Source: Patescibacteria group bacterium
GTDB lineage: Bacteria; Patescibacteriota; Patescibacteriia; 2-01-FULL-39-33
Assembly (NCBI GenBank): GCA_041645075.1
Contig: JBAZQS010000001.1
Location: 9,147-73,146 of the forward strand
Reading direction: 5' to 3'
DNA: 64,000 nucleotides
Numbering within the stretch: the first letter of the stretch is position 1; each line of letters opens with the position of its first letter. A program made the translations under genes and the position numbers. The notes beneath the pieces were generated by a model. The model did not search any database. It had not been told where the DNA came from and saw only the letters and a program-made list of their open reading frames with translations. This document shows positions 7,926 through 62,473 of this stretch, one piece after another.

Positions 7926-8004
7926 TAAAATTGTTTATTTAATTTATTCATCTATATTATTTAATTATACTACAGGCCATTAGCGATTAGCCATAGGCCA
8001 TTAG

Positions 8005-8381
8005 TGGAGATGAGGAGGGTGAACTCCTGTCTAGAAGCCAGACATAAATCAGGATACAAGTTTAGCTCTTTTTTTAAACCAAGGCCTCAAAAAAGAGCAA
8101 AATGGTCTTGGTTGTTCTTGGTAATTTTAAATGATAATTTCCAAGAAAAATTATCACCGAGCCCGATATATGACACCGCTTCTTGCTTATCAGGCCATCA
8201 GCAAGACGATGGCTGTTAAACCTTGTTAGGCAACAGCAGGGGCTAAAGCCAATCCGCGGAAAGCGAATTTTACTTTAGTCAATAAGTTTTTTGCACTTAT
8301 GTTTTGATAATTAGTTTGCGAGCAATTATCAATCTCGCCTTGCTAATTTATGGCTTAGCTTCTATCGAAACAGACATCCCC
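8005..8381 (-). ncRNA. ssrA: tmRNA (SsrA)
   Basis: On the minus strand the 5' end GGGGATGTCTGTTTCGATAG resembles the E. coli tmRNA 5' end (GGGGCUGAUUCUGGAUUCGAC). The 3' end AGGAG-TTCACC-CTCCT-CATCTCCA forms a T-arm plus acceptor pairing with the 5' GGGGATG. A GCA resume-like codon sits at nt 88-90, as in E. coli. It opens a frame ...FAFRGLALAPAVA-TAA. Immediately downstream of and co-oriented with smpB. Confidence 0.75.
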
Positions 8382-18727: not shown

Positions 18728-18811
18728 TGCCGAAGGAGAGAATCGAACTCTCATGACCGTAAGGCCACACGATTTTGAGTCGTGCGCGTCTACCAATTCC
18801 GCCACTTCGGC
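18728..18811 (-). tRNA. tRNA-Leu (anticodon CAA)
   Basis: Minus-strand sequence GCCGAAG-TG-GCGGAATTGGTAGACGC-GCACGA-CTCAAAA-TCGTG-long variable arm-AGAGTTCGATTCTCT-CCTTCGGC-A. Confidence 0.85.
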
Positions 18812-18823
18812 TTATTAATTTTA

Positions 18824-18896
18824 GTAGCAGGGGCGGGAGTTGAACCCGCGACCAATGGCTTATGAGTCCACTGCTCTACCACTGAGCTACCCTGCC
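18824..18896 (-). tRNA. tRNA-Met (anticodon CAT; elongator-type, could be tRNA-Ile2 if lysidinylated), copy 1
   Basis: GGCAGGG-TA-GCTC-AGTGGTA-GAGC-A-GTGGA-CTCATAA-GCCAT-TGGTC-GCGGG-TTCAACT-CCCGC-CCCTGCT-A. It lacks the three G-C pairs of initiator tRNA. Confidence 0.8.
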
Positions 18897-19020
18897 GCAT
18901 TATCACTAAAACACAAAAGCACAGAAAACACAGAAAGCACAAAAACGTAGACCAGATAGTTGTTTCTATGTTTTTGTGTTTTTGTGCTTTAGTGCTTTTG
19001 TGATTTCTGTTGCGGGGGCC
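18897..19020. repeat. Imperfect hairpin / repeat block (cacaaaagcacagaaa motifs) upstream of tRNA-Met copy 1
   Basis: aaaacacaaaagcacagaaaacacagaaagcacaaaaac ... gtttttgtgtttttgtgctttagtgcttttgtg are approximately reverse-complementary. The block is ~75% identical to 21076-21185. Confidence 0.6.
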
Positions 19021-19029
19021 GGATTCGAA

Positions 19030-19102
19030 CCGGCGACCTGCGGGTTATGGGCCCGCCGAGCTGCCAACTGCTCTACCCCGCGTCATTTTTAAACTTTTAT
19101 TA
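19030..19102 (-). tRNA. Initiator tRNA-fMet (anticodon CAT)
   Basis: CGCGGGG-TA-GAGC-AGTTGGCA-GCTC-G-GCGGG-CCCATAA-CCCGC-AGGTC-GCCGG-TTCGAAT-CCGGC-CCCCGCA-A. C1-A72 mismatch and GGG/CCC anticodon stem as in E. coli tRNAfMet. Confidence 0.85.
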
Positions 19103-21003: not shown

Positions 21004-21075
21004 TAGCAGGGGGCGGAGTTGAACCGCCGACCAATGGCTTATGAGTCCACTGCTCTACCACTGAGCTACCCTGCC
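21004..21075 (-). tRNA. tRNA-Met (anticodon CAT), copy 2
   Basis: Same as copy 1 except T-stem GGCGG/CCGCC. Followed by a block homologous to 18897-19020. Confidence 0.8.
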
Positions 21076-24524: not shown

Positions 24525-26729
24525 CTAACCCCCGCATTCCTTATTACTGCATTTTATCCCTCCCTTTTTGTCTTCGGTCATGGGATAGCCGCAATCCGGA
24601 CATTTTTCGCCCGTGGGCTTGCCCCAAAAAGCAAAATCGCATTTGGGATATTGGTCGCAGCCGTAAAACATTCCCTTGCGGCTTCTCTTGCTTACCACCT
24701 TGCCGGTTTTGCATTTTGGGCAAGCCAAATTTAAATCCTCGGCCGCTTCTTTTTTAATGTATTTGCAATCGGGATATTTTGAACAGCCCTTGAACGAGCC
24801 ATATCGTCCTTGGCGCATTACCAAATTGGCGCCGCACTCCGGACATTTTTCTTCTAAAAGCACCGGCGCTTTTTTTTCTTCTATTTCACCGTTGCCATTT
24901 ATTTTTTTGGTATTTTTGCAGGCCGGATAATTTGAGCAAGCCAGGAATCTGCCGAAACGCCCCACTTTTATTATCATTTCACTGCCGCATTTTTCGCATT
25001 TTTCATTGGTTTTTTCTTCAGTGATTTCTTTTTTGCTTAATTCTTTTTCTTTGAGCATAAGATTTTTATTAAAAGGTTCATAAAATTCTTTTAGAATTTT
25101 TTGCCATTTTTGTTTGCCCTCGGCGATTTCATCCAAGTCATTTTCCATTTTGGCGGTAAAATTATAATCAACAATATTTGGAAAATGTTCCATTAAGAGG
25201 TCATTGACGATAAAGGCGATATCAGTCGGTTTGAGCCGTTTATTTTCCACTCTCTCGGCGTATCTCCGTTCAATAACCGTGGCAATGGTGGGCGCGTAAG
25301 TAGAGGGCCGGCCGATGCCCTTTTCTTCCAAAATTTTTACTATACCCGCGTCCGAATAACGCGCGGCCGGCTGGGTGAATTTTTGCATTGGATTTATTTT
25401 GAGGCATTTTATGGCCTCGTCTTTTTCCAGGGCCGGCAGAATTTCATCTTTAGTTGAAGAAGGATAAATTTTTAAAAAGCCGTCAAATTTTATGATTTGG
25501 CCGCTTATTTTGAAAGTGTATTTATCATCTTTGGTATTAATATCAACCGAAGTCGCGTCAAGACGCGCCGGACTCATTTGGCTCGCCACGGCTCTTTGCC
25601 AGATTAATTGATATAATTTAAATTGATTTCTATTTAATATTTTTTCCAGTTCTGGCGGAGTGCGGTGGGCCTCGGTCGGCCTAATGGCTTCGTGGGCTTC
25701 TTGCGCGCCCTTGCTTTTAGTTTTAAAATTTCTGGTTTCTAAATAATTATTGCCCATGGTGTTTTTGATATAATCAGCCGCTTCGCCGATAAATTTTTGC
25801 GACAAATTCAAGGAGTCGGTCCTCATATAAGTAATCAAACCAACCGAATCATCGCCACCCAGATCAATGCCTTCATAAAGCTGTTGGGCAAGCATCATGG
25901 TTTGTTTGGCGGAAAATCCCAAACGCCTATTTGCTTCCTGTTGAATAGTTGAGGTCGTAAATGGCGGCAAAGGATGGCGGCTAACCTCTTTTTTAATAAT
26001 GTCAGCCACATAATAATTCTGCTTGGCTAAAGTATATAAAAGATTATCCGCTTCTTTTTTTGATTTAATTTCCAATTTATCTAATGTTTTGCCGTCTATT
26101 TTTTGGAGCTTGGCCGTGAACTTTTCTTTTTGTTTTGTTTGAAAATCGCCAAGGATTTCCCAGTACTCTTCAATTTTAAAATTTTGGATTTCCCGCTCTT
26201 TTTCTACGATTAAGCGGACAACCACGGATTGGACGCGGCCGGCCGAAAGCCCGCGCGCCACCTTTTTCCATAATAGGGGCGAAAGCTTATAGCCGACCAG
26301 TCGGTCTAAGATTCTTCGGGCTTGCTGGGCGTCAACCAAATCAAGGTCAATCTGGCGGGGATTTTTCAGGGCCTCGTTAATCGCTTCTTTGGTGATTTCG
26401 TGGAAAGTTATTCTTTGGGTTTCGCCGATTGGCGTTTTGAAAATCTGCGCCAAATGCCAGGCAATGGCCTCGCCTTCCCGGTCTTCGTCAGTGGCAAAGT
26501 AAATTAAATCGGCCTTTTCCGCCAATTTTTTTAACTCGGTAACGCGCTTTTTTGCCCTGGTTGGTATTTCATAAGTTGGTTCAAAATTATGTTCAAAATC
26601 CACTCCCATTTTTTTTGTCGGCAAATCCCTGACATGGCCGAAAGACGACTCCACCTTGAAATCATTATTTAAAAATTTTGAAATTGTTTTGGCTTTGGTC
26701 GGGGATTCAACAATTACTAAGTTTTTCAT
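24525..26729 (-). CDS. topA: DNA topoisomerase I with C-terminal zinc-ribbon repeats
   Basis: MKNLVIVESPTKAKTISKFL... Toprim/TOP1A domains; multiple C-terminal CxxC...CxxC fingers. Confidence 0.92.
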   Translation of the reverse strand: MKNLVIVESPTKAKTISKFLNNDFKVESSFGHVRDLPTKKMGVDFEHNFEPTYEIPTRAKKRVTELKKLAEKADLIYFATDEDREGEAIAWHLAQIFKTPIGETQRITFHEITKEAINEALKNPRQIDLDLVDAQQARRILDRLVGYKLSPLLWKKVARGLSAGRVQSVVVRLIVEKEREIQNFKIEEYWEILGDFQTKQKEKFTAKLQKIDGKTLDKLEIKSKKEADNLLYTLAKQNYYVADIIKKEVSRHPLPPFTTSTIQQEANRRLGFSAKQTMMLAQQLYEGIDLGGDDSVGLITYMRTDSLNLSQKFIGEAADYIKNTMGNNYLETRNFKTKSKGAQEAHEAIRPTEAHRTPPELEKILNRNQFKLYQLIWQRAVASQMSPARLDATSVDINTKDDKYTFKISGQIIKFDGFLKIYPSSTKDEILPALEKDEAIKCLKINPMQKFTQPAARYSDAGIVKILEEKGIGRPSTYAPTIATVIERRYAERVENKRLKPTDIAFIVNDLLMEHFPNIVDYNFTAKMENDLDEIAEGKQKWQKILKEFYEPFNKNLMLKEKELSKKEITEEKTNEKCEKCGSEMIIKVGRFGRFLACSNYPACKNTKKINGNGEIEEKKAPVLLEEKCPECGANLVMRQGRYGSFKGCSKYPDCKYIKKEAAEDLNLACPKCKTGKVVSKRSRKGMFYGCDQYPKCDFAFWGKPTGEKCPDCGYPMTEDKKGGIKCSNKECGG

Positions 26730-28352: not shown

Positions 28353-28430
28353 CGGGGTGTAGCTCAGTCCGGTAGAGCACCCGCCTTGGGCGCGGGGGGT
28401 CGCAGGTTCAAATCCTCGCCACTCCGACCA
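28353..28430 (+). tRNA. tRNA-Pro (anticodon TGG), CCA encoded
   Basis: CGGGGTG-TA-GCTC-AGTCCGGTA-GAGC-A-CCCGC-CTTGGGC-GCGGG-GGGTC-GCAGG-TTCAAAT-CCT(C)GC-CACTCCG-A-CCA; one bulged C in the T-stem. Confidence 0.75.
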
Positions 28431-56973: not shown

Positions 56974-57180
56974 AAATTTATTTATCCACAAGAGCCATAA
57001 ATTTTTAAAAAATCCCATAAAATCCGCGCTTTGACACCTGTCTTGGGAGTGGTATAATTAATATTGCTGGCGGAGAGGTAGAGAAACAGATCTAGTAATT
57101 AATTTGGATTTTAAAATTCAAGTTTAAACCCCTAGGTCTTTTTTTATTACGAAATTTTAGGCGCCATTATCTAAAATCCT

Positions 57181-60100
57181 ATGGAACCAAATGTCATCAA
57201 GCAAGTCAGAAAAAGAGAGGGTGATATCGTTGATTTTAGCCAAGATAAAATTACCCAGGCCGTATATAAGGCGCTCAAAGCCGTGGGGCGTGATGATGAA
57301 GCCCTGTCCCTGGAATTATCAGATAAGGTGGTTCGCATTTTAAACAACAAATTTCACTATCGTTCAATTCCGGCCATTGAGGAAATCCAGGATATGGTGG
57401 AAGAGGTTTTAATCAAAGAGGATTTAGTCAAAGCGGCCAAGGCCTATATTATTTATCGGGAACAGCACAGCCGTTTGCGCGATTTGAAAAAATTAATTGA
57501 CTCGGATGATGTCATCAACGGCTATTTAAAACAATTGGACTGGCGGGTTAAGGAAAACGCCAATATGGCCTACTCTTTGCAGGGTTTGAATAACCATGTG
57601 GCGTCGGCGGTGAGTTCGCATTATTGGCTTAACCGGGTTTATCCGCCGGAAATCAGAGAAGCCCATGTGAGCGGCGCTATTCATCTTCATGATTTGCAAA
57701 TTTTGGCGGTTTATTGCTGCGGTTGGGATTTGCAGGCCTTGCTTCGGCTTGGCTTCGGCGGGGTGGAGGGCAAGATTCACAGCAAGCCGGCCAAGCATCT
57801 TCGCGTGGCTTTAAGCCAGATGGTTAATTTTTTCTATACTCTGCAGGGCGAAGCGGCCGGCGCCGAGGCTTTTGCTAATTTTGACACTCTTTTGGCGCCT
57901 TTTGTCCGCTATGACGGCTTAGGTGAAAAAGAAGTCAGGCAAGCCATGCAGGAATTTATTTTCGGCATGAATGTGCCGACTCGAGTAGGATTTCAGACCC
58001 CATTTACAAATTTAACTTTTGATTTGATCTGCCCGTCGATTATGGCCAATGAGGTCGTCATTATCGGCGGCTTGCCCCAGAAAGAGACCTACAAAGAATT
58101 CCAGCCGGAAATGGATATGATTAATCGGGCTTTTGCCGAGGTAATGATGGCCGGCGACGCCAATGGCCGGGTCTTTACTTTTCCCATCCCGACCTATAAT
58201 ATTTCAGTCGATTTTAATTGGGACAATAAAGTCCTTGACCCGATTTGGGAAATGACGGCCAAGTACGGGATTCCTTATTTCGCTAATTTTGTAAATAGCG
58301 ATATGAAGCCCGAGGATGCGAGGAGTATGTGCATTTCACCGAAAGAAGAAGTCCTGGTCCGCAATCGCGCCAATATAAAACGTTTAAGCTTCGGCCAGAT
58401 GGTGGATAAATATCGAAAGACCGAATTTGACCAAGACGGCTGGGCCGACTGCGATTTAAACAAGAATCTTGAACTGCTTTCCTTAAATCCCGAAACCGGT
58501 AAAATGGAATGGGCGAGGGCAAAAAGATTTCTTAAAGTGGAAGACAACCGGCAAATTCGGATTATCGCCGAAGACGGCAAGAGTTTCGAGGTTTCCTCAA
58601 AGCACATTGTCCCGGTTCTGACCGAAAACGGCATCATTAATAAATTCGCCAAAGATATTAAAAACGGCGATTATCTGCTTAACTTAAAAAAAGCCGATGA
58701 GATATTAAACACCGCCTATCAACATATTGATGATTTTGTTCTTAACGAAGATCTAGCGAAAATTTTGGGATTTTTTACGGCTGACGGCAATTACCTTTTT
58801 GAAAACAGAAAAAATATGAAGGCCTTGGGTCAGCCGAGAGGGATGCAATTTACTTTTAACGCGCAGACGAAAAAGGATTTGGCTGAAGTCAAGGAATTAA
58901 TAGAAAAAGTTTTTAAAACGGCGGTTAAAGAAAAAAAAGATCCGCGTTACAACAGTTATTATTTGTATATTTATAATACCGGCTTGGCGAGAAAATTATT
59001 TGACGCGGGATTTAAAAAATACGGCCATCTGCCCGATATTATTTTCAATTCGCCAATCGCGGTGATTGAGAGTTTTTTGGATTATCATTTTCGAGGCGAC
59101 GGACACGAAAAGAGAAAAGAAATTCATATTAATGATAAAGAATTAGCCCGCGACTTGGTGATTCTTTATTCGTTAATCGGTCGGCCTGTAACTTATCGGG
59201 AAAGAAAGAAAAGCCAAGTTGTTTACATTCAGCACCAAAAATCAAAAATAAATAAAAAAGGAATTTTAAGTAATCCCGTGATCGCCGAAAGAGTGCCCGG
59301 ATTTTTAGCCAAGTCCACTTATTTGGTCCCCGGTTTGAATAAATCAAGAATGGTCGGGTTCGACGCCTTGGACAAATATCAGGCGCAAACAAAATTCAGT
59401 TTAAGTATTAAAAACAGCGATTATTACATTGTTAGAGTGAAAAAAGTGGTTCAGAAAATTTTTACAAAAGCGCGCGCGTTTTTTGACGTGGAATTGGAAA
59501 CAAATCATCTTTTTGTTCATTCTTTGGGAGTGATTACTCATAATTGTTGCCGGCTTCGGCTCGACAACCGCGAACTGCGCAAGCGCGGCGGCGGCCTTTT
59601 CGCGGCCAACCCTCTCACCGGTTCTATCGGCGTGGTCACCATTAATATGTCGCGTATCGGCTATTTATCAAAAACCCGGGACGAATATTTTAACCGTTTG
59701 GGCCAGACCATGGATTTGGCCAAGCAAAGTTTGCAGTTAAAGCGGGAAATACTGGAAAGTTTTACCGAGCAGGGGCTTTATCCCTACAGTAAATATTATT
59801 TAAAAGATATTAAGGAGAGATTTGGCGAGTATTGGCGAAATCATTTTAATACCATTGGCCTTAATGGCATGAATGAGTCGTTGCTCAACTTTATGAAGCG
59901 GCCGCTTTCCACCAAAGAAGGGCAGGAATTTGCCCTGGAAGTGATGGATTTTATGCTTCAAAGATTGGGAAAATATCAGGAGGGCGACAATCAATTATAT
60001 AATTTAGAAGCCACGCCGGCCGAAGGCGCCACTTATCGTTTTGCCAAAAAAGATAAAGAATTGTATCCGGATATAATTGTGGCCAATGAGGAGGCCTACC

Positions 60101-60444
60101 AAGAAAGCGGCGCCGCGCCTTATTATACGAATTCCACGCATCTGCCCGTTAATTTTTCCACGGATATTTTTGAGGTTTTGGAAAAGCAGGATGTTTTACA
60201 GACAAAATATACGGGCGGCACGGTTGTCCACGGTTTCTTGGGCGAGCGGATGCCGGACGCCGAGAGCACGAAAAATTTAGTCAGAAAAATCGCGGAAAAT
60301 TTCCATTTGCCTTATTATACTTTGACGCCGACTTTTTCCATTTGTCCCAAGCACGGTTATCTGGCCGGCGAGCATAGATTCTGCCCGATTTGCGATGAAG
60401 AGATTGGTTATATCAGGGAGCAGGAAGAAAAATTGCCTCTTTAA
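57181..60444 (+). CDS. nrdD: Anaerobic ribonucleoside-triphosphate reductase NrdD (class III) containing an intein and lacking the glycyl-radical C-terminal peptide, which is on a separate ORF
   Basis: N-terminal ATP-cone. Class III RNR body. C-terminal Zn-ribbon-like CPKHGYLAGEHRFCPIC, then stop. Exteins flank the intein as ...EDARSM | CCRLRLDNREL. Confidence 0.85.
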   Translation: MEPNVIKQVRKREGDIVDFSQDKITQAVYKALKAVGRDDEALSLELSDKVVRILNNKFHYRSIPAIEEIQDMVEEVLIKEDLVKAAKAYIIYREQHSRLRDLKKLIDSDDVINGYLKQLDWRVKENANMAYSLQGLNNHVASAVSSHYWLNRVYPPEIREAHVSGAIHLHDLQILAVYCCGWDLQALLRLGFGGVEGKIHSKPAKHLRVALSQMVNFFYTLQGEAAGAEAFANFDTLLAPFVRYDGLGEKEVRQAMQEFIFGMNVPTRVGFQTPFTNLTFDLICPSIMANEVVIIGGLPQKETYKEFQPEMDMINRAFAEVMMAGDANGRVFTFPIPTYNISVDFNWDNKVLDPIWEMTAKYGIPYFANFVNSDMKPEDARSMCISPKEEVLVRNRANIKRLSFGQMVDKYRKTEFDQDGWADCDLNKNLELLSLNPETGKMEWARAKRFLKVEDNRQIRIIAEDGKSFEVSSKHIVPVLTENGIINKFAKDIKNGDYLLNLKKADEILNTAYQHIDDFVLNEDLAKILGFFTADGNYLFENRKNMKALGQPRGMQFTFNAQTKKDLAEVKELIEKVFKTAVKEKKDPRYNSYYLYIYNTGLARKLFDAGFKKYGHLPDIIFNSPIAVIESFLDYHFRGDGHEKRKEIHINDKELARDLVILYSLIGRPVTYRERKKSQVVYIQHQKSKINKKGILSNPVIAERVPGFLAKSTYLVPGLNKSRMVGFDALDKYQAQTKFSLSIKNSDYYIVRVKKVVQKIFTKARAFFDVELETNHLFVHSLGVITHNCCRLRLDNRELRKRGGGLFAANPLTGSIGVVTINMSRIGYLSKTRDEYFNRLGQTMDLAKQSLQLKREILESFTEQGLYPYSKYYLKDIKERFGEYWRNHFNTIGLNGMNESLLNFMKRPLSTKEGQEFALEVMDFMLQRLGKYQEGDNQLYNLEATPAEGATYRFAKKDKELYPDIIVANEEAYQESGAAPYYTNSTHLPVNFSTDIFEVLEKQDVLQTKYTGGTVVHGFLGERMPDAESTKNLVRKIAENFHLPYYTLTPTFSICPKHGYLAGEHRFCPICDEEIGYIREQEEKLPL
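58330..59544 (+). mobile_element. Intein (405 aa) with LAGLIDADG homing-endonuclease domain inside nrdD
   Basis: Starts at Cys (CISPKEEVL...) and ends ...SLGVITHN, followed by +1 Cys (CCRL). Internal LAKILGFFTADGNY and ESFLDYHFRGDGH LAGLIDADG-like blocks. Length is a multiple of three (1215 nt). Confidence 0.8.
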
Positions 60445-60477
60445 ATTCGTAATTTTTAATTCGTAATTATATATTTT

Positions 60478-60639
60478 ATGGAAGGTGAACAAACAAAATC
60501 GGAAAGACAGCCCTGCGAGGTTTATTCGCGGGTTGTCGGTTATCTCCGCCCGGTGGACCAATGGAATCCGGGCAAGCAGTCGGAATTTATAGACCGTAAG
60601 TCCTTTGCGGTTTGCGGTTGCGCGGCTGAGCCGTTATAA
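60478..60639 (+). CDS. Small ORF (53 aa) encoding the NrdD glycyl-radical C-terminal peptide (RVVGYL motif)
   Basis: MEGEQTKSERQPCEVYSRVVGYLRPVDQWNPGKQSEFIDRKSF... parallels the E. coli NrdD C-terminus ...TRRVCGYLGSPDARPFNAGKQEEVKRRV. It lies 32 nt downstream of the nrdD stop and in a different frame; it is below the ORF-track size cutoff. Confidence 0.7.
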   Translation: MEGEQTKSERQPCEVYSRVVGYLRPVDQWNPGKQSEFIDRKSFAVCGCAAEPL

Positions 60640-60646
60640 ATCCGTT

Positions 60647-61342
60647 ATGAAAATAGGCGGATTACAGCCGGTAACCCTACTGGATTATCCCCAGAAAGTG
60701 GCAGCGATAATATTCACCCTTGGTTGCGATATGCGCTGTCCTTTTTGTTATAATCCGAATTTGGTCTGGCCCGATTTAATCAAGAAAGCAAATTTGTTGC
60801 CGGAAACGGACTTGTTTTCTTTTTTAAAGCGCCGCCGGAAATATTTAGACGGCGTTTGCCTGACAGGCGGCGAGCCGCTGCTCCAGCCGGACCTGATTTC
60901 TTTTTTGGAGAAAATAAAAAAACTTGGTTATTCAGTTAAATTAGACACCAATGGCTTGAGGCCGGATATTTTGAAAAAATTAATGGCCGGCGGGTTGATT
61001 GATTACGCGGCCATGGACATCAAGGGCCCGTTAGAACAATATGAAAAATTCTGCGGCGTAAAAATAAACGGCGGTGAGATTAAAAAAAGTATCGGCCTGA
61101 TTATAAAGAGCGGTCTGGATTATGAATTTAGAAGCACTTTAGTCAAGGGATTGCATAAAAAATCTGATATTGTTAAGATGGCAAAGTTAATTAAAGGCGC
61201 CGGTAAATATTTTTTACAAAATTTTAATCCGCAAGCGGTTTTGGTGGGCGGAAAATTTAAGGGCGCAAGTTTTACGCAAAAAGAAATGGCGGAGTTTTGC
61301 CGCTTGGCGGGAAAATATGTCAATATGTGTAAAGTTAGGTAG
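60647..61342 (+). CDS. nrdG: Anaerobic ribonucleotide reductase activating protein NrdG (radical SAM)
   Basis: CxxxCxxC cluster GCDMRCPFCYNP. Likely start MKIGGLQPVTLLDYP (60647); the ORF track starts at 60605. Confidence 0.85.
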   Translation: MKIGGLQPVTLLDYPQKVAAIIFTLGCDMRCPFCYNPNLVWPDLIKKANLLPETDLFSFLKRRRKYLDGVCLTGGEPLLQPDLISFLEKIKKLGYSVKLDTNGLRPDILKKLMAGGLIDYAAMDIKGPLEQYEKFCGVKINGGEIKKSIGLIIKSGLDYEFRSTLVKGLHKKSDIVKMAKLIKGAGKYFLQNFNPQAVLVGGKFKGASFTQKEMAEFCRLAGKYVNMCKVR

Positions 61343-61362: not shown

Positions 61363-62473
61363 ATGAAAGAAATATTTTCACAAATCAAAGATTTACAAGG
61401 CAAAATCTCTGGAAGCTGGAGGTTGCTTTGACTTGGATAAATCGCAAAAAGAAATAAGCAAACTGGAACAGGAAATTTTCCAGCCGGATTTTTGGCAAGA
61501 GGCAAATCGGGCGAAAGCGATAAGCAAAAAATACGAGGATTTGAAAAAGGAATTTGACCAGTGGCGGATTTTAAAAAACGAAATTGATGATTTATCGGAA
61601 TTGGCGGAGGTAGCCGAAAATGATGAAAATTTGGCTAAGGAAATTAATGAAAAATTTACCAAAGCGGAAAAAAAGTTTTCCAAATTAGAATTTCAAGTTT
61701 TATTTTCCGGAGTCCACGATAAAAATAATGCTATTTTGTCTATTCACGCGGGCACGGGCGGGGTAGACGCGCAGGACTGGGCCGAGATACTTTTGCGAAT
61801 GTATTTAAGATTTTGCGAAATACACGGTTTTGAGGCGAGAGTGATTGATAAGAGCGCGGGCAGTGAAGCCGGCGTAAAAAGTGTCGTGGTAGAGGTTATT
61901 GGCCGCCATGCTTATGGTTGGCTTCGGTCGGAAAATGGCGTTCATCGCCTGGTGCGCATTTCGCCCTTTGACGCGGAAAAAATGAGACACACCTCCTTTG
62001 CTTTAGTGGAAGTGCTTCCTGAATTGGCCGAAGAGAAAGACCCGTCGGCGCCGGCAGGAATCGGACTTAAAGATTCGGATTTAAGAATCGAGGTCATGCG
62101 CGCGGGCGGCCACGGCGGCCAAAGCGTTAATACCACGGATTCAGCGGTGCGTATCACTCATATTCCCACGGGCATTGTCGTCAAGTGCCAGAATGAGCGG
62201 TCGCAACTGCAGAATAAAAATAACGCCTTTAAAATTTTAAAAGCCAAACTGCTTAAAATCAGCGAGGAAAAAGAAAGCGAAGAAATTAAAAAAATAAAAG
62301 GCGATTATCAGAAAGCCGAATGGGGCAATCAGGCGCGGTCTTATGTGATGCAACCGTATAAATTAGTCAAAGACCACCGCACTAATTACGAAACGCCGGA
62401 TATTGACCGCGTGCTTAACGGCGAAATTGATGATTTTGTGGAAAATTATTTGAGATATAAAATTGCAAAATAA
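61363..62473 (+). CDS. prfB: Peptide chain release factor 2 with programmed +1 ribosomal frameshift
   Basis: Frame 0 is MKEIFSQIKDLQGKISGSWRLL-TGA. The shift site ggagg-ttg-CTT-TGA-C at 61415-61432 continues in +1 as DLDKSQKE... The body has SPF (RISPFD) and GGQ (HGGQSVN) motifs. Confidence 0.85.

Follow-up and report, generated by a model that had tools for sequence, protein, structure and literature searches.

A conserved patescibacterial operon carries the glycyl-radical loop of class III ribonucleotide reductase on a separate small gene

Architecture of the nrdD locus

The glycyl-radical enzyme NrdD, the class III ribonucleotide reductase, is regarded as consisting of one chain. We analysed a 64-kb stretch of DNA from a Patescibacteria group bacterium (contig JBAZQS010000001.1, positions 9,147 to 73,146; here called the window), in which the nrdD open reading frame (ORF) ends before the glycyl-radical loop and a 53-amino-acid (aa) ORF carrying that loop lies between nrdD and nrdG, the gene for the radical-SAM activase. 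An earlier note on this DNA, made from the sequence alone, had suggested either a genuinely two-piece NrdD with a replaceable radical subunit or, failing that, a frameshift or an error in assembly.

The large ORF encodes an ATP-cone, an alpha/beta barrel and a zinc ribbon, and lacks the glycyl-radical loop. It scored 577.5 bits against the Pfam profile NRDD PF13597 (cutoff 26.2), with coverage only to profile position 533 of 562, as well as 1010 bits against the NCBIfam model PRK08270 (cutoff 548) and 487.5 bits against TIGR02487 (cutoff 326). As the earlier note had observed, it ends past a zinc-ribbon-like segment, CPKHGYLAGEHRFCPIC, to which a 16-aa tail is added, DEEIGYIREQEEKLPL. The ribbon aligns with CEDGHAFYGER--CPVCG(609) of Thermotoga maritima NrdD (PDB 4COI), and on that protein the break falls between CPVCG609 and D614-EYMRIVGY. 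The radical motif was found, again as proposed, on the separate ATG-initiated ORF, which carries ...CEVYSRVVGYLRPVDQWNPGKQSEF... and matches positions 530-562 of NRDD (E 3.6e-10). Aligned to NrdD C-termini, it also matches the final ~33 positions of three NCBIfam NrdD models. Together the two ORFs span the NRDD profile without a gap (1-533 and 530-562), and the match is therefore not due to chance. Among the features of the NrdD family, the barrel domain, the finger-loop MCCR (once spliced), the zinc ribbon and an adjacent NrdG activase all go with the large chain, while an RVxGY motif on the same polypeptide does not; the ORF pair supplies it.

The earlier note had placed the small ORF 32 nucleotides (nt) past nrdD and in a different frame. 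The two are in fact 33 nt apart (60445-60477), and the small ORF lies in the frame of nrdD itself. Translated in this one frame, positions 60340-60642 read ...EEKLPL, stop, IRNF, stop, FVIIYFMEGEQ..., with in-frame TAA codons at 60442 and, within the spacer, at 60457-60459. The spacer also contains a short direct repeat (TAAATTCGTAATTTT / TAATTCGTAATTATA).

The likely start of nrdG is the ATG at 60647, 8 nt past the stop of the small ORF. Neither promoter-like nor terminator-like sites were seen on the + strand between nrdD, the small ORF and nrdG, so the three genes look like one operon, and the perfect extended sigma-70 consensus site at 57031-57058 is probably its promoter, as judged from its letters. 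Directly upstream of nrdD the window has ftsZ, where several relatives (loci L081 and L214-L216) have nrdR instead. No second radical loop was found within the 64-kb window, which argues that the peptide is an obligate subunit here and not a back-up.

Table 1. Features of the nrdD operon in the window and of related loci with a stand-alone loop protein (coordinates of the last row are those of the respective loci).
Feature	Coordinates	Strand	Remarks
Promoter-like site TTGACA-16-TATAAT	57031..57058	+	12/12 matches, TG before -10; ~120 nt upstream of nrdD
nrdD large subunit ORF	57181..60444	+	precursor 1087 aa; 682 aa once intein removed
ATP-cone (aa 8-97), allosteric activity domain	57202..57471	+	PF03477, E 2.9e-19
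Intein, 405 aa (aa 384-788)	58330..59544	+	within catalytic finger loop of nrdD
Zinc ribbon CPKH-x9-CPIC (aa 1055-1071)	60343..60393	+	final conserved element of large subunit
Acidic 16-aa tail of large subunit, DEEIGYIREQEEKLPL	60394..60441	+	
nrdD stop TAA and 33-nt AT-rich spacer	60442..60477	+	gap 60445-60477
Small subunit ORF, 53 aa, ATG start; stand-alone glycyl-radical loop peptide MEGEQTKSERQPCEVYSRVVGYLRPVDQWNPGKQSEFIDRKSFAVCGCAAEPL	60478..60639	+	
Codon GGT, Gly21, predicted radical glycine in RVVG21Y	60538..60540	+	aligns with RIVGY motif of T. maritima NrdD
Cys46-Gly-Cys48, C-terminal Cys pair of small subunit	60613..60621	+	
nrdG, radical-SAM activase, 231 aa	60647..61342	+	CX3CX2C at aa 27; TIGR02495 NrdG2 205.7 bits (cutoff 131)
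Moranbacteria/Pacebacteria loci, ~86-aa protein between intact full-length NrdD and nrdG	L033 3299-5285; L214 1326-3761; L215 1176-3761; L216 994-3767		

The catalytic finger loop of the large ORF is interrupted by an intein, which the earlier note had missed. Intein profiles PF14890 (43.1 bits, cutoff 35.8) and TIGR01443 (18.6 bits, cutoff 15.6) match it, its junctions read ...ARSM|C ISPKEE ... VITHN|CCRLRL with the splicing residues Cys1, C-terminal His-Asn and Cys+1 present, and LAGLIDADG-like blocks lie at aa 525 and 632. Relatives without the insertion read SMCCRLRL at the finger loop, and splicing would yield a 682-aa protein with the MCCR double-cysteine motif. An intein at this site means that the enzyme needs protein splicing in addition to two-chain assembly. 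Similarly long NrdD ORFs were seen in the viral relatives L090, L148, L152 and L124.

Split and fused nrdD among cellular relatives

The last 299 residues of the large subunit served as query in a scan of one genome per species, which returned 80 loci at 58-80% identity. In 31 of these relatives the large ORF likewise ends past the zinc ribbon, and a separate, intact ATG ORF of 40-102 aa bears the loop, with the consensus R(Q/T)xCEVYSRVVGYLRPVxQWNxGKxxEFxDRK. In the other 49 the loop is fused and begins 4-9 residues beyond the CxxC (linkers of 4, 6 or 9). The bacterial split loci belong to Patescibacteria (Parcubacteria-like, Veblenbacteria, Dojkabacteria, Microgenomates and Moranbacteria), and the archaeal ones to DPANN (Pace-, Woese- and Nanoarchaeota). 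Across the 32 split loci, counting the window, the distance from nrdD to the small ORF ranges from an overlap to ~190 nt. Ten of the small ORFs share the nrdD frame, and the other 22 use a different frame or overlap nrdD; as 10 of 32 is what chance predicts, the shared frame in the window means nothing. In many DPANN loci, GGAGGTG precedes the ATG of the small ORF by 5-9 nt. The gene directly next is nrdG in 75 of 81 loci, and in cellular genomes the loop peptide always lies between nrdD and nrdG. The orthologous loci thus bear out the first of the earlier note's two suggestions, that of a genuine two-piece NrdD: the split recurs at the same junction in close relatives, with intact small ORFs under selection.

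Over the 33-codon loop core, the proportion of nonsynonymous differences (pN) was 0.08-0.34, against 0.66-1.0 (saturated) for synonymous differences (pS). Both ORFs are under purifying selection, the peptide strongly so. The conserved operon of promoter, nrdD, radical-loop peptide and nrdG is under selection as two genes. A search of protein collections with the 53-aa ORF gave at least 291 clusters; the 120 peptide clusters listed were all 43-78 aa long and all had an R(V/I)VGY-type motif, and 115 of them start with Met. Sixteen residues are invariant among 46 aligned peptides (C13 E14 V15 S17 R18 V20 G21 Y22 R24 P25 V26 N30 G32 K33 E36 R40). Neither PHROGs nor NCBIfam holds a family for the stand-alone peptides, which match only the final ~50 positions of full-length NrdD models and are labelled in databases simply as 'anaerobic ribonucleoside-triphosphate reductase'.

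The two sides of the break carry residues that differ between split and fused forms. Directly after the CxxC, Asp is found in 30 of 35 split large subunits (usually as CD-x-E), whereas Gly is the commonest residue in fused forms (26/66). Counted back from EVY, 28 of the 35 peptides have Arg at -4 and 33 have Cys at -1; in fused forms, position -1 is Cys or Thr and the Arg is absent. From their charges, the acidic end of the large subunit and the basic end of the peptide may contact each other. At one split locus (L058, 2170-2330), the large-subunit tail EEKRNKIRNEIQKLKEELIV and the N-terminus of the peptide MEKKEILAKIEQLEQELLNV look like amphipathic helices, which may form a coiled-coil tether joining the two pieces. 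A conserved 'EIGY' in the large-subunit tail was considered as a vestigial or second radical motif and rejected: the Arg-Val context is absent, and the Gly is missing in viral and several cellular split tails (CDEEII.., CDKEIM.., CDQEKS).

The history of the split was read from a neighbour-joining tree (647 columns, 100 bootstraps), which replaced a poorly resolved neighbour-joining tree of 275 residues. Clades made up entirely of split forms were recovered at 100% support for 14 DPANN loci, for five of Dojkabacteria type and for four that include the window. Other split forms are nested in fused clades, namely L035 (Thermoplasmata-type, 100%), L030 beside fused L033 (91%) and L058 beside fused L060 (97%). 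This indicates that the junction was cut or joined several times; because deep nodes are poorly supported, the count of independent fissions is a lower bound. At L081 (3833-3900) the functional loop KCEVYSRVVGYLRPV is immediately preceded, in the same frame, by a degenerate tandem copy, RCEIYAGRRCGGYILL, which hints that the loop is duplicated locally at times.

Stand-alone loops beside full-length NrdD and in viruses

Stand-alone loops also occur as a second type, about 86 aa long, with a CxxC...CxxC zinc ribbon of its own and usually a C-terminal CC or CxC, which comprises at least 370 clusters. Its loop is homologous to that of the window (hhalign probability 99.8%, E 1.9e-27). In four loci from Moranbacteria and Pacebacteria (L033 and L214-L216; table 1), such a protein is encoded between an intact full-length NrdD and nrdG. 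Judged by analogy, this layout is a spare-part arrangement like that of GrcA, the spare part of PFL. Within each of these genomes the resident and the stand-alone loop are 75-83% identical, with third codon positions partly diverged, and the two have lineage-specific residues in common (WNGAK in L215). Such likeness within one genome fits two loops serving one pocket. In L030 (2738-5257), the sister of L033, only a decayed resident loop is left (KTEVFLKVGEEE, compared with KTEVYSRVVGYIRPV in L033), and in L027 the resident loop is absent. These two loci point to a path from fused, through fused plus spare, to obligate two-piece enzymes.

The window peptide resembles these zinc-ribbon-plus-loop proteins of Moranbacteria and Pacebacteria, and those of phages and of the archaeal virus ANMV-1 (~86-145 aa), in its homologous loop, its operon position and, often, the C-terminal Cys pair. 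They differ in that the latter have their own ribbon and usually coexist with full-length NrdD, whereas the window peptide is loop only and its partner is truncated. Among the loop-only peptides 37 of 120 have such a Cys pair, as do 91 of 120 zinc-ribbon-plus-loop proteins (CC or CxC; CGC in the window). Where a genome also encodes a full-length NrdD, the tail of that resident protein is Lys-rich and has no Cys. C-terminal tails of class I and class II enzymes carry reducing equivalents into the active site. The Cys pair may be a redox-active tail and, by analogy, may act in the same way.

We then consider viruses. IMG/VR was scanned with the peptide alignment, and the best 80 loci (L082-L161) were taken. 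In 63 of these the ORF is short and not fused. About 60 of the 63 have neither NrdD nor NrdG within 4 kb, as searched with hidden Markov models built from the analysed loci, although the contigs are incomplete and a distant nrdD is possible. The stand-alone viral peptides are 45-145 aa long, and their neighbours are phage genes that encode head-tail connector, head completion, tail lysozyme, HNH endonuclease and amidase proteins. ANMV-1 (GenBank KP703175.1, 38.5 kb) encodes a 144-aa zinc-ribbon-plus-loop protein at 25525-25959, and its genome record contains no other reductase or activase gene; the authors of that genome took the protein for the whole nrdD (PMC4372165). That a virus should carry the peptide alone is understandable if the peptide can act in trans together with host proteins, which supports an autonomous, exchangeable radical element. 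In addition, among 49 viral nrdD loci at least 12 show the same split as the window. As a separate observation, the viral NrdD ORFs L175, L185, L186, L188, L195 and L210 run ~110-130 residues past the radical loop, and these extensions (...APTLVV...) look thioredoxin- or glutaredoxin-like by eye.

Alternative readings, proposed mechanism and relation to known systems

The presence of the same break in relatives, the purifying selection and the peptide clusters rule out an assembly error, a pseudogene and read-through, and we take error, decay and single-chain synthesis to be excluded for practical purposes. Least credible of all is a sequencing or assembly artefact or a decaying nrdD pseudogene. 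The locus does come from one metagenome-type sequence, and an identical small ORF is not on record elsewhere, but because the two ORFs share a frame, a continuous one would need changes at both TAA codons, and it would leave ~40 codons where fused relatives have a linker of 4-9 residues. The same architecture moreover recurs in 31 independent species-level genomes and hundreds of protein clusters, which disposes of the frameshift or assembly error that the earlier note had kept as its alternative. Decay does not fit with selection on both ORFs or with the score of the large ORF on its equivalog model. Synthesis of a single polypeptide, whether TAA is read through or recoded or ribosomes bypass the 33-nt spacer, to which the shared frame with only two TAA codons in between might point, is scarcely more credible: TAA ends more of the long ORFs in the window than any other stop (17/30), most split loci (22/32) have their small ORF in another frame or overlapping, and the spacer RNA was less stable than shuffled controls (z = +1.46), with no Rfam match. 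Joining of the chains by a split intein at the junction was likewise rejected, as the flanks are just 16 and 12 non-conserved residues, far too short for one, and match no intein profile. We also find it highly improbable that the peptide regulates NrdG or acts on it as a decoy, or that it carries a radical for some other enzyme, with the truncated NrdD inactive or otherwise used. The residues conserved in the peptide coincide exactly with those of the loop and tail in fused NrdD relatives, its place in cellular genomes is invariably between nrdD and nrdG, and the large subunit retains the other catalytic hallmarks, with only the loop missing; that the viral orphans show the peptide to be useful away from an adjacent nrdD is an indirect point in favour of such a role.

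A more serious contender, which we nevertheless find rather unlikely, accepts the two-piece enzyme as real and regards its fission as selectively neutral, a stop and a start having arisen in a permissive linker with no gain in repair or regulation. At exactly this point, fused relatives carry a short linker whose length varies (4, 6 or 9 residues), and several fission or fusion events are what a tolerant site would be expected to show. Other split reductases work, among them NrdJa/NrdJb of Pseudomonas aeruginosa, cited in PMC9669993, and phage examples (PMC3653736). Neutrality does not, on the other hand, account for the new conserved features at both ends (Asp after CxxC, usually CD-x-E, and R-x-x-C on the peptide), for the strong ribosome-binding sites on many small ORFs or for stand-alone copies that coexist with intact full-length NrdD. 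Viruses with the peptide alone are also hard to explain unless a free peptide is valuable in itself.

Taken together, the sequences make it very likely that the locus encodes a functional heteromeric two-piece class III reductase with its radical element on a separately made peptide. Several points weigh against this interpretation. Another reductase may lie outside the visible 64 kb, and the small ORF lacks a Shine-Dalgarno site, as do ftsA, ftsZ and nrdD of the window. A look-up of the exact 53-aa sequence in public assemblies found no other record of it, so that this genome is represented by one copy alone. AlphaFold2 modelled the peptide alone with low confidence (mean predicted local distance difference test score, pLDDT, 61.6); in the 86-87-aa zinc-ribbon form the ribbon was ordered (71-84) and the loop was below 50. 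These scores are compatible with folding on binding but decide nothing. Finally, the rationale of cheap replacement is conjectural, and repeated fission could simply reflect a permissive linker.

Under the two-piece interpretation, the large subunit would contribute the ATP-cone, a ten-stranded barrel, the MCCR finger loop after splicing and the zinc ribbon, and the 53-aa small subunit would supply the whole glycyl-radical loop and the C-terminal tail. NrdG would abstract a hydrogen from Gly21 of the peptide, where the radical would form. The peptide loop would then insert into the large-subunit barrel beside the MCCR finger loop, leading to a thiyl radical on a finger-loop cysteine. PFL activase takes short peptides and GrcA as substrates, and O2 cleaves glycyl-radical enzymes at the radical glycine. 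After such cleavage, ~50 residues could be replaced rather than a 682-residue enzyme. A separate peptide might also give the activase access to the glycine with no need to draw a domain out of the barrel; the radical domain of NrdD is mobile (PMC11226230), and the peptide tail may lie across the enzyme surface as it does in Prevotella copri NrdD (PMC11226230). The peptide is probably exchangeable, and whether exchange or repair is the selected advantage we consider an evenly balanced question.

We compared the locus with known systems. It shares with canonical single-chain NrdD/NrdG (phage T4, Escherichia coli, T. maritima 4COI/4U3E and P. copri) the ATP-cone, the barrel, the MCCR-type finger loop, the zinc ribbon and the RVxGY loop with its tail, as well as the adjacent nrdG and membership of the PRK08270 / TIGR02487 family. 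It differs in that the loop and tail form a 53-aa chain of their own, the large chain stops past the ribbon and the finger loop holds an intein. GrcA/YfiD (and phage T4 Y06I) is, like the window peptide, a small stand-alone glycyl-radical loop protein, presumably activated by the activase of its parent and inserted in the parent barrel. The two are not homologous: the only Pfam match of the window peptide is NRDD PF13597, with no Gly_radical PF01228 at E <= 0.1, and it is 53 aa long without a zinc ribbon, compared with 127 aa for GrcA. The GrcA analogy drawn by the earlier note is supported indirectly by the relatives with a full-length NrdD plus a stand-alone loop and by the viruses that carry such genes alone. 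For the window itself it holds in part, since the peptide here is obligatory and not a back-up; coexistence with a loop-bearing full-length parent, a trait of GrcA, is seen in L033 and L214-L216, with the longer zinc-ribbon form, and not in the window. The peptide may be 'replaceable', as the earlier note had it.

The class II enzymes NrdJa/NrdJb of P. aeruginosa and Thermus phage YS40 likewise have the catalytic subunit as two adjacent ORFs, with non-covalent assembly. The window differs from these and from interrupted phage nrd genes in class, in break point and in consequence, since here the radical cofactor is parted from the barrel. There is also no mobile element in the gap of the window, unlike in phage nrd genes interrupted by introns, inteins or endonucleases; the split phage nrdD genes described in PMC3653736 involve introns, inteins or fragmentation elsewhere in the gene. 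According to a review of June 2026 (PMC13450708), formate lyases alone among glycyl-radical enzymes have spare-part proteins, and our search of the full-text literature, which leaves aside subscription-only papers, turned up neither a split NrdD nor a spare part for NrdD.

Elsewhere in the window, prfB (release factor 2; 61363-62473) has a canonical programmed +1 frameshift, with an ATG at 61363, an SD-like (Shine-Dalgarno-like) GGAGG and CTT TGA C at 61426-61432, which means that TGA is a stop codon in this genome; the ORF list contained only the downstream part of prfB, from 'TTG' 61433. A scan with Rfam found a tmRNA gene at 8002-8381 and six tRNA genes at 23-96, 18728-19082, 21004-21075 and 28353-28426, all ordinary.

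We see about an even chance that the 53-aa ORF represents an extensive and so far unrecognised family of autonomous glycyl-radical peptides of the NrdD type, working as protein cofactors that diffuse and can be exchanged. Its members would be obligate subunits in many Patescibacteria and DPANN archaea, spares beside full-length NrdD in Moranbacteria and Pacebacteria, and orphans in phages and archaeal viruses that plug into the host reductase for the supply of deoxynucleoside triphosphates. With the radical glycine on a natural peptide of 40-60 residues, a minimal NrdG substrate would be at hand, and docking and exchange of the radical domain would become directly testable. Pipelines that score 'NrdD present' from the peptides or 'NrdD truncated' from the large subunits misjudge both, and small viral 'nrdD' genes need re-reading; that of ANMV-1 may be a radical-cofactor gene dependent on the host enzyme. 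For the cells themselves, the arrangement suggests a way in which organisms with tiny genomes could repair oxygen-damaged enzyme at low cost.

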